Shown piece by piece: positions 1,631-14,364 of a DNA stretch of 15,998 nt (position 1 is the first letter of the stretch; every line of letters starts with the position of its first letter). Origin of the DNA: a virus (lineage: Duplodnaviria; Heunggongvirae; Uroviricota; Caudoviricetes); the IMG/VR virus record IMGVR_UViG_3300037418_002559, positions 1-15,998 of that record; one strand, written 5' to 3'. A program made the position numbers and the translations under genes. The notes beneath the pieces are model-generated. The model was not told where the DNA came from. It saw nothing but the letters and a program-made list of their open reading frames with translations, and did no database searches.

Positions 1631-4188
1631 TGCGCGCAGTCCAGGCTAAACGTTACCTGCTTGGCCCCGCTCACTGCGGTAATGAAGAAACCAAGAGTGT
1701 CGTTAGCCGCTATGGAAGTAGAAGTGAAGTCGGTCAGCGTCGTCGAGTCGATCTTGGTTCCGGTCGCAAGAGAAACGCCAGAGGTAGAGATTGAGTTAGA
1801 AGCTACGGTTGGCAGCGCCGTACCGCCGTTCACGCGCGCCGTCTTGACGGTCACTGTGCCAGAATCGGCCATGATGTGCCAACCGGTAATGGTACATGCG
1901 AATGGAACGGTGATGTAGCCTACTTCAGACGTGGTGAGCGCGGAGCCAGTTGCCACGTCGCCGAACGACCATCCCAAGGATCTGGTTGTGGAAATATATG
2001 TGCCGACCGACTGGCTTATTCCGTTAACTGTAGAAGGTGTAGCGAACTTCATCACTTGCCCGGCAGGATTGGCCGCTGGCAGTTGCAGAAAATATGCCGG
2101 TGTGCCAGAAGCAGGACCAGCAAAGCCGACGTAATTGGCTGGTAGCGAACCGGTGGCGATGGTTCCGGTGCCGACGCCCAGCGCCGCTACGCCTTGTGTG
2201 GAGCCGCTGGTGGCGATTGAGGTTGGCGTGATGGCGCCGAGCGTCAAAGCAATTGTACCGTTGGAAGTCACAGGCGAGCCGCTTACACCGATGCCGTTCG
2301 CTCCCGTCACTGCTACAGACGTGACCGTGCCTGCACCAGCCCACGTGCCGTCGCCGCGCCAAAAGGTAGAAGCCGAAGCGCTAGTGCCGGAGTTGAGGTG
2401 GCTTACACCAAGGTTGCCAGTAACGTCCGCTGTAGCCAGATTGACCGCACTGGACGTGACAGCCGACTCGTTCACGCCATCCGCCGTTGCTGGCGCTGCT
2501 GCATGAATAATGCCAGCTGTAATTGTGGCGGGCAGCTTTAACAGGTACGCCGTGCCTCCTGTCGCTGGCGCCGCAAGACCGGCAGAGTTGGCTGGCAATG
2601 CTGCGATGCTGCCTGCACCAGCTGTAAGTTTTACCGCTCCTGGAGTAAGGCCATTCGTTCCAATAGAAGCCACTACAACTGGCTCTGCTGATGTTACGGT
2701 CGTACCGTCGTCTGATAGCGCGGAGTTGATAATGGAGTTTGGTCCGTTCGCGCGCGGTAGAACGTTGGTAGTCAGCGAAGTGGACGTGGTATTTCCGCTT
2801 CCGCCGCTCACGGCAGTGATGACGCCGCTGGTGCAGGTGATGGTGGTGCCGTCGCACTTCACGCCGCCCAGCACAGAGGTCGTAGCCTGCGGCAGCGTAT
2901 ATCCACTCCCATTCGCAATTACGAACGCCGTGGTTGCCAGCTTAGTTGAGTTATCTCCATTCGCTTGCGTTGTTGCCGTTGTGCCGTTCGGCAGTGCTGG
3001 CGTGCCGGAAAGATTTGCCGCCGTGCCGGTCGTGTTCTGATTCAACGTTGCGATGAACGAGGCCGGAATCTGGTTTGAGGCACTGTAGGACAAGCCCCAC
3101 GCATTGCTGCCCGCATAATTCGCAATGCCAGCTGCTGCGGGCCAGGTCATGGTGCCGCCGGAATACTGCGGTATGTTCAGCGTCCCGCTGGACACTGTGG
3201 CTGGGCCGCTAGTCCCGGTGGTGGTCAGTGCGGTGATGTAGCGATTGGCGAGCGCGAACGCGGTCGTGGCGAGCTTGGTCGTATTGTCGCCCAGCGTTTG
3301 CGTAGTCGCCGTAGTGCCATTGGGGAGGGCTGGCGTGCCGGACAGGTTGGCGGCAGTGCCGGTGGTGTTCTGATTCAGCACAGGCACGTCAGCCGCTACG
3401 ATACTGCGCGCGTGCGGAGCGCCGTCGGTGCCAATGTAATCGAGAAACTCATTGGCCACGGAAGTGGAAGCTTGTACGCCGCCCAGCGCACCCACAGTAG
3501 GCGTGGGTATCTGCGCCGCAGCGAGCGTGCCAGTTATGTCTGCGAACGACGGCTGCGCAGTACCGAACAAGCCAGAAACGGAATCGTAATTAGCGATGAA
3601 CTGGTGCGCCAGCTGCGTGCGCGTAACCGGCAGCTGCGTACCACTCGGCAGGTAGGGCAGAGCAGGCAAGTCACCAGCGGTAAGCGCGCAGAGACCTACA
3701 CTCGTTGCCGTGCCGCAAGTGCCCAGTACGAGGTGCGACGTCTGCCCTGTGGCGCTCTGGAATGTCTGCGTACCGGACGACGACAGAGTAGTGGGCGAAG
3801 CAGCCAGCCATGAAGGCAGCGCCCAAGCGATACTGCCAATGCCAGTACCCGTACCGCTGAAGGTGTACGTATTGCCTATATGAGAAACACCCGGCCCAGT
3901 AAATGAAAAGTTACCGGTAAGTGTGTCAATACTTTGAACGCCGTTGGCGGTGCCAACCTTCTGCCAAGTGAGCGGCGTACCAGTACACTGGTAGACACCG
4001 CCACCAGCTGTTGTGCTGGTGTTAACAACAGTAAGGTAGTTAGGATACGCGCAAGAGCCCGCAGGCGTGTAGCTCTGATAGACTACGTAGCCCGCTGTAG
4101 GCGGGCCTTGCGCACGCACTACTTTGCAGCCAACAGTAGCTGACAATGCGCAAAGTAGTGACACAATGAAGAGAAGTTTCTTAGGCAC
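1627..4188 (-). CDS. Large tail-fibre-like / adhesin-like protein with N-terminal signal peptide and internal repeats
   Basis: 853 aa, GTG start after AAGGAG, hydrophobic N-terminus MPKKLLFIVSLLCALSATVGC. It is T/S/G/A-rich and has two copies of the fibre-repeat-like motif TTATTQxxGDN(S/T)TKLATTAF. Confidence 0.75.
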   Translation of the reverse strand: MPKKLLFIVSLLCALSATVGCKVVRAQGPPTAGYVVYQSYTPAGSCAYPNYLTVVNTSTTAGGGVYQCTGTPLTWQKVGTANGVQSIDTLTGNFSFTGPGVSHIGNTYTFSGTGTGIGSIAWALPSWLAASPTTLSSSGTQTFQSATGQTSHLVLGTCGTATSVGLCALTAGDLPALPYLPSGTQLPVTRTQLAHQFIANYDSVSGLFGTAQPSFADITGTLAAAQIPTPTVGALGGVQASTSVANEFLDYIGTDGAPHARSIVAADVPVLNQNTTGTAANLSGTPALPNGTTATTQTLGDNTTKLATTAFALANRYITALTTTGTSGPATVSSGTLNIPQYSGGTMTWPAAAGIANYAGSNAWGLSYSASNQIPASFIATLNQNTTGTAANLSGTPALPNGTTATTQANGDNSTKLATTAFVIANGSGYTLPQATTSVLGGVKCDGTTITCTSGVITAVSGGSGNTTSTSLTTNVLPRANGPNSIINSALSDDGTTVTSAEPVVVASIGTNGLTPGAVKLTAGAGSIAALPANSAGLAAPATGGTAYLLKLPATITAGIIHAAAPATADGVNESAVTSSAVNLATADVTGNLGVSHLNSGTSASASTFWRGDGTWAGAGTVTSVAVTGANGIGVSGSPVTSNGTIALTLGAITPTSIATSGSTQGVAALGVGTGTIATGSLPANYVGFAGPASGTPAYFLQLPAANPAGQVMKFATPSTVNGISQSVGTYISTTRSLGWSFGDVATGSALTTSEVGYITVPFACTITGWHIMADSGTVTVKTARVNGGTALPTVASNSISTSGVSLATGTKIDSTTLTDFTSTSIAANDTLGFFITAVSGAKQVTFSLDCAQ
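2911..3378 (-). repeat. Intragenic 45-aa duplication (copies ~3243-3378 and ~2911-3045)
   Basis: LNQNTTGTAANLSGTPALPNGTTATTQ(TL/AN)GDN(T/S)TKLATTAF(A/V)(L/I)AN occurs twice in the 853-aa protein. Confidence 0.9.
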
Positions 4189-5082: not shown

Positions 5083-7098
5083 TTAGTCAGTTTCCCAGTC
5101 CTTAATCCTTGGATCTCCAGTGAATTCTTGAAGCGCCTTCAACCGGGTCACGAAGTTCCCTATTTCCTTCTTGTTCTTGCGCGCCCATTCAACGAACTGA
5201 GAAGTGTTAACTTGGAATGCCGTAGGCCCGTTCAATTTGTAGCTGACGTTGATCATGGAGGCGTCGCCCACCGGCGCTACGTCCTTGGCCCTGGCAAGAT
5301 TGCCGCCGGTGATGTTATGGAATCCATTCTTGCGCTCGTTGAGCACGCGCCACTCATTCTTGCCGCCCTCGTTACGACGAACAAAGCCGTGACTGACCAT
5401 CTGTTCCGTTGGCGGATCGACGGGGAAGCGATACTCGAAGCCGTTACGCTCCAGGCTCTTCGCAAGCGCCTTGGCTTTGTCCGCGTTCACGCCCATCATG
5501 CCGACGTGTGCACCCACCGGCGCTACGTCCTTGGCCAGCGCCTTCTTCAATGCGGACTTAGACTTGCCGTACTTACCATTCAGCACGTCGTTCACGAAGC
5601 GCAGGTCAAATCCTGTCTCCTTAGCAATAGCTGCTGGCTTCTTACCTGCTTCCGCCTCGCGGATAATAAGCATGGCGCTGCCGTAGTCTGTATCGCGCTC
5701 GAAGGGGGAGGCGTCGGTGGCGCTGCCTGACGGCACTGCCCTAATAATGTGCCACTCCCACCCCAGTTTAGCGCGCTCCGGCTCTGCCTTCTTCTTGGCC
5801 TCCTCCTTTGAGGAGGCTGTCACAGTAACGTACTTTTTCTGACTAAGATAGTAAGCGTTACGGATTGTTACAGTCCACGTACCTGCGTCCTCCGCCTTGG
5901 GCCGCTGTGAGCGCGGAATCACCTTGGCGATGGGTGCGAGCGCCTTGTTCTCGGAGTCGATGGCTTTGAAAGCCGCGTTCTGTTTCTTTGCAGCTTCATA
6001 TAGCGCTTTATCTTCTGCTGTTTTTGGCGGGTACGCAACGAAGAGTTTCAAGATGTTATTCAGAAGATGTTGTTTGTCCTTCACTTGCGCAAGGCGCTTC
6101 TGCAGCTTCTGTTCTGCCGAGTCCCCCGTCCGCCCCTTGAGCAGCGCGTGGATAGCCTTGGCCTCTTTACCGCCGATGCGCTTGTCCTTGTTGATTTCCT
6201 TCTGGACGGCTTCGGCGTTGTACTTAATGGGCTTTACTTCGGCGTCCTTCCCACCACGCATGCGCTCGCCAGCCTTAATCTGACGCAGTGCAGCTTCGTG
6301 TGCTAGCTTAGCTACTTGTGGGCTGACTGTTGGCTCTGCTGGTGCTGGCGTGTACTTGACGGGCTTCACTTCGGCGTCCTTCGCTCTACTGGGCTTGTAC
6401 GTCAACTGTTCCACATGCGCTTTATCTTTCGGTCGTTTGCCTTTGTTGTACAGCTTCTCCGCAGCTGCGTTCGTTATGTCAAGCTCTCTAGCCAGAACAC
6501 TAATCTCTGCGTATTTCGGCGAAAGACCTGTGGGCTGGCCCAGCGGACCGGCGTCCTTGGCCTGGAACTGCGTGCGCGACAGATCGGACGCGGGTAGCTC
6601 TTTGTTAGTTCCCATGTGCCGCACCAGGTACGCTCCGCTCGACTTAACGGCCCGTATCAGTCCGGTTCCGCCGCCGTGGGTGGTGTTCACGAACACGCGC
6701 TCACCCTCCTTGAAACCGTCGGCGTCGCCCACCGGAGCGACGTCCGTCGTAAAGCGCTTCAGCTTCGGCTCGCCATACACTTGGTGCCCCTGCTTCTCGG
6801 CGACGGCCTTCGCCGCTTCTGGATCCGTCGCCGTGACGGTCATCCACTTGACGGTGGCACCGCTCTTGACACGCATCACGAACTCCTTCGCCGCTGAGTC
6901 CTCCGCGTACTCGCTGGGGTGCTCTTTGTTCTCAGTGCTGTCGCCCAACGGGGCGACGTCCTTGCCGCGACCACGCAGAGCAATAGCTGCTTCGCTGGCA
7001 CTGTTGAACGGGCCAAACCGCAAACTATCGTTCGGCAGGCGGTAGAACCACTTGCCGTTTACGACTACGATCGTTCCTTCTCTACCTTCGAATCCCAT
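5083..7098 (-). CDS. Modular basic protein with repeated (A/G/T)-x-D-(A/S/V) linkers; putative processed internal head protein
   Basis: Likely start is ATG 7098 (GGAGG SD; the ORF track extends to 7125). Lys/Ala-rich modules of ~40-80 aa are separated by GKDVAPLGDS, TTDVAPVGDA, AKDAG, AKDAEVKPVKY, GKDAEVKPIKY, TGDSA, AEDAG, ATDAS, AKDVAPVGA and AKDVAPVGDA. Confidence 0.8.
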   Translation of the reverse strand: MGFEGREGTIVVVNGKWFYRLPNDSLRFGPFNSASEAAIALRGRGKDVAPLGDSTENKEHPSEYAEDSAAKEFVMRVKSGATVKWMTVTATDPEAAKAVAEKQGHQVYGEPKLKRFTTDVAPVGDADGFKEGERVFVNTTHGGGTGLIRAVKSSGAYLVRHMGTNKELPASDLSRTQFQAKDAGPLGQPTGLSPKYAEISVLARELDITNAAAEKLYNKGKRPKDKAHVEQLTYKPSRAKDAEVKPVKYTPAPAEPTVSPQVAKLAHEAALRQIKAGERMRGGKDAEVKPIKYNAEAVQKEINKDKRIGGKEAKAIHALLKGRTGDSAEQKLQKRLAQVKDKQHLLNNILKLFVAYPPKTAEDKALYEAAKKQNAAFKAIDSENKALAPIAKVIPRSQRPKAEDAGTWTVTIRNAYYLSQKKYVTVTASSKEEAKKKAEPERAKLGWEWHIIRAVPSGSATDASPFERDTDYGSAMLIIREAEAGKKPAAIAKETGFDLRFVNDVLNGKYGKSKSALKKALAKDVAPVGAHVGMMGVNADKAKALAKSLERNGFEYRFPVDPPTEQMVSHGFVRRNEGGKNEWRVLNERKNGFHNITGGNLARAKDVAPVGDASMINVSYKLNGPTAFQVNTSQFVEWARKNKKEIGNFVTRLKALQEFTGDPRIKDWETD
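5267..5536. repeat. Exact 24-nt direct repeat cccaccggcgctacgtccttggcc (5267-5290, 5513-5536) encoding the AKDVAPVG linker; degenerate copies near 6721-6745 and 6940-6967
   Basis: Read directly from the sequence. Confidence 0.9.
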
Positions 7099-7099
7099 C

Positions 7100-7261
7100 T
7101 CAATCCTCCAAGACCTGAGCCGCATCCAGCTCCGGTAGCATCCAGTTTATAACGCCGCCGGGTCTCCAGAAAATGCGAACGCCGGGTTGCTTGCTCAGCT
7201 CCCGCGCTTTTTCGCAGGTGGTAGTCGTGGTCTTGGGCATGACGAGTAGATTTTCCTTCAT
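7100..7261 (-). CDS. Small hypothetical protein (53 aa)
   Basis: ATG overlaps the TGA of 7258..7566 (ATGA). The ORF fills the gap to the SD of the next gene: MKENLLVMPKTTTTTCEKARELSKQPGVRIFWRPGG... Confidence 0.55.
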   Translation of the reverse strand: MKENLLVMPKTTTTTCEKARELSKQPGVRIFWRPGGVINWMLPELDAAQVLED

Positions 7262-12001: not shown

Positions 12002-12751
12002 CTACTCCTTCGGCCCTGCCTTCAGCGCCGCGAACAGGCCTTCCAGCTGCTCGTTGGGCTTCTCTCCGGAGTTGTCAGGGCTCCGTCCGTGCTTCTTGGG
12101 CTTGAGATGGCCGAGAGTCCACTGTATGCCCTGAAGCGCCAGTTTACTTCGCTCTACGTTGTCAATGTAACGCGTCTCGACGGTGTCCACAACATCTCCG
12201 TCCTTAGTAACTACCTGCCGTTCAACTGTGATGGTTCCCTTGTTCGTATTCAGTGTTAAGTGCTGCGCCATTTCTTCATAGAGCGGCACCAATAAGTCTT
12301 TTGCGCGCGTACGGATTTCTACGAACGGGTGTTCTTTTTCCCCGAGCCAGACTAACATCTGCGCAACTGGCGGCATGCCTTCTATCTCTGCGATTTCACG
12401 CATACTATGCCCAGTAGATATCAGTGTGAACAGAGCATTACCAAGTTGATCAGTCCACTCAACACGTGCGTATTCCCATGGCCTGCCCTTATTCTGCTGA
12501 ATGGCTGGCGTGGTGACCAGCCCCATAGTAGCTTGTTTACCAGCAGTCTTCGTAGCGGCAATCACTTCCGCTTGCGTGTCTTTAGCGGCTGCTATATTGA
12601 ACTCTGTGACAGCTTTGTTTGCGGCTGATTTCTGTGCTCTATTAAGACGACCATCGTGCGTCTTTCCTGGAGGCAGAGGATTGCCTCTAGGCTTCTTCGC
12701 AACCGGCTTCTTGGAAGCAGGCGCATTAGTCGCCTTCTTCTTAGTCGCCAT
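12002..12751 (-). CDS. terS: Terminase small subunit (Sf6 gp1 / P22-like type) with long basic N-terminal extension
   Basis: AAGGAG SD. HTH-like ISTGHSMREIAEIEGMPPVAQMLVWL, followed by F...RAK and DNVERSKLALQGIQWTLGHLKPKKHG, the pattern of Sf6-type small terminases. It is the first gene of the packaging block. Confidence 0.85.
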   Translation of the reverse strand: MATKKKATNAPASKKPVAKKPRGNPLPPGKTHDGRLNRAQKSAANKAVTEFNIAAAKDTQAEVIAATKTAGKQATMGLVTTPAIQQNKGRPWEYARVEWTDQLGNALFTLISTGHSMREIAEIEGMPPVAQMLVWLGEKEHPFVEIRTRAKDLLVPLYEEMAQHLTLNTNKGTITVERQVVTKDGDVVDTVETRYIDNVERSKLALQGIQWTLGHLKPKKHGRSPDNSGEKPNEQLEGLFAALKAGPKE

Positions 12752-12771
12752 GCGGTAGTTCTCCTTGGGTT

Positions 12772-12816
12772 AAATAAAGAAGACGCCGCCAAGTGTGAAG
12801 GGCACTCAGCGGCGTC
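12772..12816 (-). terminator. Strong Rho-independent terminator ending the RNA locus, just upstream of terS
   Basis: On the minus strand: GACGCCGC-TGAGTG / CCCTTCA loop / CACTTG-GCGGCGTC (14 bp including two G-U pairs), then TTCTTTATTT. Confidence 0.8.
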
Positions 12817-13015
12817 AGGTTGTGACTGTTCGCGTCAAGGCGGTGCCATGGTCAGCCTCAGCGCACTGTGCGGCGCGGTAAGGACGCCCGTCGTCACTCA
12901 CGAACTGCGCTTTGTGCGGCCAACCCACTGGTTGAATTGAACTGATCGCGCACAAAGAATAAAAGTTGCCGGCCTCTTCTGTTGCCAGGACTCATCCGGC
13001 TTGCCCCGACGGTTG

Positions 13016-13099
13016 TTAGGCCGCCAGCTGCATCGGAGCAACGGTGCGAGCACGGAATGCGAGCACGTTGTTCTTCCGCGTACTGTCACGTTGGGTGGC
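13016..13099 (-). other. tmRNA tag reading frame (A)ATQRDSTRKNNVLAFRARTVAPMQLAA*
   Basis: Resume context CACAACU-GCC (A at -4), 27 sense codons, C-terminal LAA degron. The exact resume codon is inferred. Confidence 0.75.
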
Positions 13100-13186
13100 A
13101 GTTGTGGTTCAGTTCTCGTTACGGTGAGCACCAGTTCCGGCAAAGTCCATGGACTTTCAAACACCCGTCGAAACCATGACAGGCCC

Positions 13187-13332
13187 ACAAGAGAGTGCTT
13201 CAATACTTCTCAGCTTCAAGGGCTTTACCATTGCACGTGACTCGCTTCGAGGCCGTGCCTCTAGCAGCAGGTTGCGATCCTACCACCCTCATCACTAGCT
13301 TACGTACTTATACCGCTTTTTGAAGCACTCTC
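13187..13332 (-). other. tmRNA intervening segment (146 nt) closed by a perfect 13-bp inverted repeat
   Basis: GAGAGTGCTTCAA directly after CCA (13332-13320) pairs with TTGAAGCACTCTC (13203-13191) 4 nt before the GGG 5' end. Confidence 0.85.
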
Positions 13333-13593
13333 TGGTGGACCCGATGGGAGTCGAACCCATGTCCGAATCATTCTCCAATCCACTTCATACCTTGCGTAAC
13401 TACGGGGCATCCGTACAGGCTTGCCTCCACCACTCCGTCTACATCGGACGGAGACAATCATGTCAGGACCGGTAAGCTGGTTGATCAATCCAGCCTCTAA
13501 TGCGCGAGCCGCCCAGTCCTTTGCTGCGGTCGTAATGCGCGTTCGGTGGCAGCCCATTTATTGCTACTATATGGCCTTTCGGCACCGAACTAA

Positions 13594-13704
13594 TGTGCAA
13601 GCGCTGATGGGATTCGAACCCATGCAATCCGTTGCCTCTTTACGAGGTGGTCATCCCCAGCAGCGATGCTGGCCGTTCAGCCACTCCGGCACAACGCTTG
13701 CACA
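13594..13704 (-). ncRNA. tRNA-Ser-like RNA / pseudo-tRNA lacking a 7-nt anticodon loop
   Basis: AGCGTTG-TG-CCG GAGTGGCTGAA CGG-C-CAGCA TCGC TGCTG-(~33-nt variable region)-ATGGG TTCGAAT CCCAT-CAGCGCT. The D-arm is Ser-type, the acceptor helix extends to 13 bp, and no CCA is encoded. Confidence 0.7.
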
Positions 13705-13713
13705 ACTCAAACT

Positions 13714-13790
13714 TGGTCGGCGATGAAGGATTCGAACCTCCGACATCCTGCTCCCAAAGCAGGCGCGCTACCAGACTGCGCCAATCGCCG
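13714..13790 (-). tRNA. tRNA-Pro (anticodon UGG)
   Basis: 77-nt canonical cloverleaf: CGGCGAT-TG-GCGC AGTCTGGTA GCGC-G-CCTGC TTTGGGA GCAGG-ATGTC-GGAGG TTCGAAT CCTTC-ATCGCCG-A-CCA. Confidence 0.97.
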
Positions 13791-13840
13791 TCGTGCTTTG
13801 CTGCTCGCCTAGAATCTCACATAGCAGCAGCGCACACTTA

Positions 13841-13846
13841 ATTATA
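13841..13846 (-). promoter_or_regulatory. Candidate -10 box (TATAAT) upstream of the RNA locus
   Basis: Perfect TATAAT ~50 nt upstream of tRNA-Pro. No convincing -35 element. Confidence 0.35.
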
Positions 13847-13848
13847 GC

Positions 13849-14019
13849 CTACCGTGCATCCAGACTTTCACGCAGGAACAGGCCGTCTTCAATTTCACGC
13901 AGGCGGTAGAATACCAGCCCGTTGTGGCTCTCTGTAGCGCCGACGGTGAATGCTTCTTTCACACGTAGTTCTCTTTGCTGCACCAAGGTGACTTTGCTGC
14001 CGACTTTCAAATCGTGCAT
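13849..14019 (-). CDS. Small hypothetical protein (56 aa)
   Basis: GGAGG SD with 5-nt spacer before ATG 14019 (the ORF track gives a longer upstream start): MHDLKVGSKVTLVQQRELRVKEAFTVG... Confidence 0.6.
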   Translation of the reverse strand: MHDLKVGSKVTLVQQRELRVKEAFTVGATESHNGLVFYRLREIEDGLFLRESLDAR

Positions 14020-14364
14020 GCTTGCCTCCAATGACTTACTTTGCGGGGAGGCAGCCCCGATGAAGCTCTGCCTCCGTATTCCGCACAGTTCCCGAACAGC
14101 CTTCTGGGCCTCTCGTCGGGTGCTCAGCACTGAATCCAGTGCCAACATCAATCATTATAAGGCCGCCAGCAGGTGTCGCCTTCTAGACGACTGCTGCAGC
14201 AAGCGTAATGGTAATCATAGACAGCGTCTACACAGAGCAAGCTCCGGAACGAGCTAGCCAACCTCCGCGCCTACTAGCGGCCTGTAACTATTATAAGCGC
14301 CGCTTCGGTCGCAGTGCGCCGAGTATCGCACCAGCCATTGTGAACCCAATTCCTATGCGCGCTC

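Follow-up and report, generated by a model that had tools for sequence, protein, structure and literature searches.

The 15,998-nt stretch of DNA analysed here (the window) is the first 16 kb of a virus record of 100,317 bp that CheckV rates as complete (100%), and it carries on its minus strand a circularly permuted (two-piece) tmRNA gene in which the 3' half of the tRNA-like domain lies upstream of the 5' half. The gene is encoded by the phage, its fold and its tag reading frame are conserved across independently assembled copies, and it represents a new, well-supported family within the phage two-piece tmRNAs that are already known. We consider it highly probable that this is a genuine accessory gene of an uncultured tailed phage of ~100 kb and that its RNA takes part in ordinary trans-translation on host factors.

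Identification and architecture of the two-piece tmRNA gene

ARAGORN called a permuted 'tmRNA*' at 12925-13425 on the minus strand, and the Rfam model RF04321 (tmRNA_permuted) matched the same strand over full model positions 1-213 with a score of 68.7 bits (E = 1e-11), above its curated cut-off of 47 bits. The initial annotation, made from the letters alone, had proposed a permuted tmRNA at 12960-13500 and had suggested that covariance models be run against it; both programs agree with that proposal, RF04321 aligns to the acceptor piece as well as to the coding piece, and the span covers the gene, whose conserved part extends from 13453 to ~12955. Its further expectation that standard tRNA and tmRNA scans would mis-call the gene was wrong for the window, where ARAGORN and Rfam both call it. 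Among the homologues described below, ARAGORN missed L095, which has a 3-nt spacer and was detected by Rfam, and mis-read the tag of L225. The parts of the gene are as follows.

13333-13453, minus strand: acceptor piece (ARAGORN 3' tRNA domain, RF04321 alignment and covariation)
13453-13433, minus strand: 5' hairpin of the acceptor piece, covarying across homologues
13433-13423, minus strand: motif GUGGUGGAGGC in the acceptor piece, invariant in most members of the family
13409-13403, minus strand: UGCCCCG in the acceptor piece
within 13333-13453, minus strand: 3' strands of helix 2 (covariation)
13360-13344, minus strand: T-arm, covarying
13343-13337, minus strand: 3' strand of the acceptor stem
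13336, minus strand: A73
13335-13333, minus strand: encoded CCA
13187-13332, minus strand: intervening segment (spacer) of 146 nt, closed by a perfect 13-bp stem
12955-13186, minus strand: coding piece (ARAGORN 5' tRNA domain and tag, RF04321 alignment; 3' end approximate)
13186-13180, minus strand: 5' strand of the acceptor stem, GGGCCUG
13175-13167, minus strand: GGUUUCGAC in the coding piece
within 12955-13186, minus strand: 5' strands of helix 2
about 13142-13107, minus strand: pk1-like region
13016-13099, minus strand: tag frame of 27 codons followed by UAA, ATQRDSTRKNNVLAFRARTVAPMQLAA, with resume codon GCC
13025-13008, minus strand: stop-codon hairpin, covarying
13007-12968, minus strand: conserved 3' domain, with conservation ending just past CCGGCA

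Read from the sequence, the acceptor piece ends in GGAC-AUGGG-UUCGACU-CCCAU-CGGGUCC-A-CCA, with its last nucleotide at 13333, and the coding piece starts at 13186 with GGGCCUG...GGUUUCGACGG. The two halves form the 7-bp acceptor stem that had been described at the outset, with G3:U70 and A73, and the CCA is encoded. The complementarity of helix-2 segments between the halves, also proposed at that stage, is backed by covariation in the homologues, and the tag frame ending in LAA and a stop codon is present at 13099-13016.

Homologues and conserved fold

Homologues were searched for in contigs of uncultured phages and metagenomes with TerL and with a pattern derived from the conserved 3' domain. 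Six further full-length copies were found in independent assemblies (L011, L015, L066, L095, L099 and L225), together with a truncated member.

L011: complete 105-kb virus, TerL 65% identical
L015: TerL 67% identical
L066: 107-kb virus
L095 and L099: full-length tmRNA copies on contigs
L225: 100-kb contig, TerL 69% identical
L075: truncated contig of the tmRNA family

The homologues scored 74.9-101.1 bits with RF04321, and an nhmmer profile made from coding pieces matched all six copies over their full length. The family comes from soil or peat-type metagenomes. The pattern scan of metagenomes returned 33 loci, five of which hold the family tmRNA or a part of it (L075, L083, L094, L095 and L099; L083 is the same contig as L011). 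About 23 loci (L068-L100) were rejected as chance matches to the 3'-domain pattern that are not tmRNA; they carry a nearly identical element of ~95 nt (...CCTGGGGCAAGCCGGTATGGGGCAGCAACAGTATACCCCGCCGGCTCCCCCAAG...) with a nested GC-rich hairpin, which is found on many unrelated contigs, mostly from human-gut metagenomes. A looser pattern for the acceptor piece gave chance matches, with no new family members among the matches listed, and a search of IMG/VR for the exact 32-nt T-arm and acceptor end gave no match.

Alignment of the seven members showed G3:U70 and A73 to be invariant (7/7), with covariation at acceptor-stem positions 4-6 and in the T-stem. Six members encode the CCA, the exception being L225, whose acceptor piece ends in ACC-U and lacks an encoded terminal A. 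The consensus of the tRNA-like domain and helix 2 from six homologues comprised 29 pairs, with 92% of cells canonical and compensatory changes in 17 pairs, compared with 38-51% canonical for slid partners and 81% canonical with 16 compensatory pairs for the best of 500 column shuffles. The seven-member alignment gave 23 pairs, 93% canonical and 11 compensatory, again above all controls. Within this consensus fold helix 2 consists of three segments with compensatory changes; a covarying hairpin carries the stop codon in its loop; and the 3'-domain hairpin GCCGG/CCGGC is replaced in L225 by GUCGG/CCGAC, a compensatory change.

Two regions of the fold are less clear-cut. In the 3' domain, for which the initial annotation had proposed a pk2-like pseudoknot, the GGGGC strand has an ambiguous partner, either within the coding piece or in the GCCCC of the acceptor piece; when the pieces were co-folded thermodynamically, the long-range pairings were inconsistent and did not settle it. 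For the pk1 region, an H-type arrangement was drawn by eye from the alignment, with CGG/CCG as stem 1 and a stem 2 formed by CUC/GAG (window) or CCG(A)CU/AGCGG (L015); the corresponding sequence of L095 is a plain hairpin. We also considered the 5' hairpin of the acceptor piece as a fossil of tandem duplication, given its likeness in an RF00023 alignment to the 5' tRNA-like part of one-piece tmRNA, and rejected this reading, the likeness not being conserved in homologues.

Other RNAs were called beside two of the homologues. In L225 an 82-nt tRNA-Arg(CCU) call (2362-2443, plus strand) starts ~7 nt past the end of the coding piece. In L099 a match to Rfam CyVA-1 (RF02965; 1938-2011, plus strand; 43 bits against a cut-off of 41.4) lies ~560 nt downstream of the tmRNA; CyVA-1 RNA is absent from the genome of the window and from three relatives.

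The spacer and the permuted order

The perfect 13-bp stem that had been seen to close the intervening segment is present, and the spacer as a whole has a folding energy of -52.9 kcal/mol (z = -3.66 relative to shuffled versions). Across the seven members the spacers are 146, 86, 83-84, 67, 18, 18 and 3 nt in length and unrelated in sequence, with the long ones closed by stems of 13, 10, 9 and 7 bp that sit directly between the CCA end and the short run before G1. An ORF of 31 codons inside the window spacer (13295-13200) was rejected as a feature of the family, with nothing comparable conserved in the homologues. Such variable length and lack of conservation are as expected of cut-out sequence and fit an excised segment; the non-conserved spacers of 3 to 146 nt also suggest that the precursor may be processed into two base-paired mature RNAs.

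Mis-assembly at 13187-13332, by which a one-piece gene would appear in permuted order, had been raised as a possible refutation. Although the record was assembled from a metagenome and an inverted repeat of 13 bp flanks the spacer, nothing was found in favour of an artefact, and the order of acceptor piece first and coding piece second recurs in seven independent assemblies. Because these assemblies share the permuted order while their spacers (3-146 nt) are not conserved, mis-assembly is excluded, and we give an artefactual order next to no credence.

The tag reading frame

From its GCC resume codon the tag frame is open for 27-28 codons in all seven members, with an in-frame 3-nt indel in L011, and the tags share the consensus A[TN]xx[DV]Sx[RKQ][KR][NDG]NVL[AM]F...[LM][QA][LM]AA. 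The Ser at position 6 is specified by AGU, AGC or UCU, depending on the member. Position -4 before the resume codon, which established tmRNA work ties to the choice of that codon, is an A in each of the six members tabulated. With pairwise pN/pS values of 0.43 to 1.2, the tag peptide is under selection that is weak overall and concentrated in blocks. At 27-28 residues the phage tag is about three times as long as that of E. coli, which has 10 residues (ANDENYALAA), and its central motif NNVLAF recalls NNIV.F, which we take to be the core of the cyanobacterial tag.

Genomic neighbourhood in the phage

On the minus strand the genes follow one another in the order tRNA-Pro(UGG), an irregular tRNA-like element, the tmRNA, a terminator-like hairpin, TerS, TerL and a head-morphogenesis gene, so that the tmRNA gene stands just upstream of the terminase genes, with TerS, TerL and the head-morphogenesis gene directly downstream.

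13714-13790, minus strand: tRNA-Pro(UGG) (ARAGORN; Rfam tRNA 66.6 bits)
12782-12816, minus strand: terminator-like hairpin, 14 bp followed by UUCUUUAUUU, between the RNA gene cluster and TerS
12002-12751, minus strand: TerS gene, immediately downstream of the tmRNA (PHROG 1482, E = 1.4e-10)

The tRNA-Pro(UGG) heads the small cluster of RNA genes to which the tmRNA belongs and is kept in relatives L003 and L101, which have no tmRNA. No sigma-70-like promoter was found within 12700-14300. A complete viral genome, flanks of phage genes and conserved synteny together establish that the tmRNA is encoded by the phage and belongs neither to a host nor to a prophage border; the initial annotation had called it phage-encoded, in agreement with the CheckV-complete record and with the terminase and head genes downstream.

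The irregular tRNA-like element (13599-13698, minus strand), between tRNA-Pro and the tmRNA, scored 34.1 bits with the Rfam tRNA model (cut-off 29). The D-arm is of Ser type, the T-arm is good and the acceptor stem has 7 bp, but the anticodon-loop position has a loop of only 4 nt and the extra arm is very long; ARAGORN did not call it, also when introns were allowed, and a homologue was found in none of the related loci. Irregular tRNA-like genes have been described on acidobacterial-type soil contigs (PMC5389517). Between this element and the acceptor piece lie ~170 nt of non-coding sequence (13426-13598, minus strand), likewise with no homologue in any related locus. Elsewhere in the window, the 680-residue protein encoded at 5083-7125 had no tblastn match among deposited phages.

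Faint matches to HNH or NUMOD3 homing endonucleases were seen in small genes between or beside the terminase genes of several relatives (L102, 4494-4835; L103; L222, 5287-5607; L224, 3026-4008; L225, 3380-3697), and no such gene was detected at the terminase position in the window.

Distribution among related phages

The tmRNA is an accessory and dispensable gene with a patchy distribution among close relatives. It is lacking in the closest of these, L102 (TerL 88% identical), L003 (85%), L101 (79%), L222 (78%) and L224 (71%), and is found at the same place in the more distant L011, L015, L095 and L225; the order of RNA genes, TerS and TerL is kept in L011, L015 and L095. Compared with L003, the window has an extra ~810 nt between tRNA-Pro and TerS, in which lie the terminator and the tmRNA as well as the tRNA-like element and the non-coding stretch at 13426-13598. 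A deletion remnant of the family tmRNA was found in L094 (reverse complement of 1300-1410 in a 1,493-nt contig). Nothing more survives there than the 3' domain, the stop-codon hairpin and the final ~10 codons of the tag, and these directly abut the end of a protein gene, the same one that lies upstream of the intact tmRNA in L066. A TerL search of genome contigs gave a single match, on an 8-kb contig that had been binned to a MAG of Nitrospiraceae.

The patchiness among close relatives and the L094 remnant could also be taken to mean that the gene is recently captured host DNA, decaying and without function in the phage. Alternatively, it could be a functionless mimic of an attachment site (attP), tmRNA genes being common integration sites of mobile elements (PMC4383910). 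However, no match to a tyrosine integrase (PF00589) was found in the phage genome, and the tmRNA is therefore not an attP fragment. Against decay stand the completeness of the gene, the retention of all identity elements, by way of compensatory changes, in seven diverged copies, and a location beside the terminase genes that is shared even by phages with TerL identities as low as 65-69%. A host source finds no backing either, the tag-plus-3'-domain pattern having no match in the bacterial genomes among species representatives. We consider a functionless passenger of either sort very improbable.

Proposed function in trans-translation

A gene for SmpB is absent from the genome of the window and from the genomes of two relatives, and the tmRNA must therefore rely on the SmpB of the host. 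Following established tmRNA biology, we propose that the acceptor piece, spacer and coding piece would be transcribed in one precursor with the tRNA genes beside them. Closure of the spacer by its stem would set the CCA end (13333) beside G1 (13186), allowing the acceptor stem, T-arm and helix 2 to form; host RNase P would then cleave at G1, and 3' trimming would remove the spacer back to the CCA, to leave two base-paired RNAs of ~121 nt and ~230 nt. Host AlaRS, if compatible with the phage RNA as we assume, would charge it by way of G3:U70 and A73, and host SmpB, for which compatibility is likewise assumed, would together with EF-Tu carry it to ribosomes stalled on broken mRNAs. Translation would resume at GCC (13099) and add the 27-residue tag ending in LAA, by which the ribosome would be freed and the tagged peptide marked for host proteases. 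During the breakdown of host mRNA, the phage may profit from a greater capacity for ribosome rescue or from one tuned to the phage. A more speculative benefit, put forward in the initial annotation, would be to stand in for host tmRNA that is cut in the course of defence.

The same dependence on host factors can be read in another way, with the RNA acting mainly as a competitor or re-router that soaks up host SmpB and EF-Tu, or that swaps the host tag for a long phage tag; the outcome would be an altered fate for the products of stalled ribosomes, or a blunted host trans-translation, with no added rescue capacity. A phage that has no SmpB of its own must share that of the host, and the tag, at about three times the E. 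coli length, contains the conserved blocks ATQRDS (N-terminal) and NVLAF (central), to which no purpose has been assigned. There is also a precedent in the RNA of phage DS6A, which consists of a tRNA-like domain only and is thought to inhibit tmRNA by titrating SmpB (PMC4131195). A pure decoy, however, has no need of a conserved reading frame, and in the present family G3:U70, A73, the A at -4, the open tag frame, the stop codon in a hairpin loop and the C-terminal [LM]AA are all kept. We therefore regard competition or re-routing as the main role of this RNA as unlikely, and favour ordinary trans-translation on host factors.

Relation to known tmRNAs

The models for the three two-piece host lineages did not reach their cut-offs on the window, and all three aligned to the tRNA-like domain only.

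beta_tmRNA (RF01850): 36.2 bits, cut-off 84
cyano_tmRNA (RF01851): 28.7 bits, cut-off 70, model positions 54-122 only
alpha_tmRNA (RF01849): 18.6 bits, cut-off 50, model positions 80-179 only

With the homologues L066, L099 and L095, the beta model gave 46.3-50.5 bits, also below its cut-off. The one-piece model RF00023 matched only the acceptor piece of the window, at 28.1 bits compared with a cut-off of 47. When the gene was compared by blastn with 50,697 deposited phage records, no similarity was seen beyond T-arm matches of 31-35 nt; a match in Stenotrophomonas phage Summit, considered as a relative of the tmRNA, was rejected after it proved to be a suppressor tRNA.

The phage tmRNAs listed in 2014 were one-piece (PMC4131195). 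Since then, tmRNA genes have been reported in 402 of 18,146 phage genomes, with 133 unique structures of which 53 are permuted according to ARAGORN (Buchholz et al. 2022, PMC9004378). The permuted examples include Methylophilales phage Melnitz and Pelagibacter phages HTVC008M and Mosig; Synechococcus phages S-CAM1, S-CAM3, S-CRM01 and S-SSM7; and Caulobacter phages phiCbK, CcrSwift and CcrKarma; others are carried by phages of Stenotrophomonas, Citrobacter, Bordetella and Streptomyces, hosts outside the three two-piece lineages (PMC9004378). In a tree, the tmRNAs of Melnitz and of the marine phages group with the alpha or cyano host lineages (PMC9004378). The tmRNA database holds 79 phage sequences and, for Acidobacteriota, 1,589 standard, 0 alpha-type and 5 'beta-type' permuted tmRNAs (PMC11915505, with the latter counts in Table S2).

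Because two-piece tmRNAs had already been reported in phages (PMC9004378), the gene in the window is of a known kind. The novelty of a permuted phage tmRNA that the initial annotation implied is thus lost to the 53 structures already tabulated there, an outcome it had itself named as one that would speak against it. The family could have been captured from a host lineage with two-piece tmRNA and since diverged, or it could go back to a separate permutation. More speculatively, and in our view less likely than not, the family might form a permutation lineage of its own beyond the alpha, beta and cyano types, one that arose or at least diversified in phages instead of being copied from a host with a two-piece gene, and whose conserved tag would act as a phage-specific signal, for example to an adaptor or protease, and be more than a replica of the host degradation tag.

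The known range of phage-carried genes is unchanged by this tmRNA. What it adds to the two-piece phage tmRNAs, so far mostly from aquatic isolates, is a well-documented family of soil-type phages, with seven diverged copies that provide a structure supported by covariation, a conserved long tag and natural experiments in spacer length (3 to 146 nt); all of these may be of use in testing how the precursors of permuted tmRNAs mature. Since the family matches none of the lineage models and comes and goes among near-identical phages, it may help to explain the stray 'permuted' tmRNAs that turn up in phyla with one-piece tmRNA (PMC11915505, Table S2).

By comparison with known systems, the nearest of the lineage models is that of the beta two-piece tmRNA (RF01850), the best-scoring of the three, which shares the layout of acceptor piece, spacer and coding piece; model positions ~68-175 of 331 match (the tRNA-like domain and helix 2), whereas the 5' domain of the acceptor piece, the tag and the 3' domain of the phage tmRNA go unrecognised. 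The permuted layout is also shared with the alpha (RF01849) and cyano (RF01851) two-piece tmRNAs. One-piece tmRNA (RF00023), including that of Bxz1-group mycobacteriophages and Bacillus phage G, differs in gene order, which is permuted here, although it has in common with the phage gene the Ala tRNA-like domain and helix 2, a resume codon for Ala preceded by a putative pk1-like region, a tag with AA at its C-terminus and a hairpin whose loop holds the stop codon. The closest parallel is with the phage tmRNAs of PMC9004378, which share the permuted order, the location in a phage genome among tRNA genes, the 'tmRNA*' call by ARAGORN and a presumed dependence on host factors. Those tmRNAs come mostly from marine or aquatic isolates, whereas the present family comes from soil or peat-type metagenomes and is set apart by its tag of 27-28 residues and by its fit to no lineage model.
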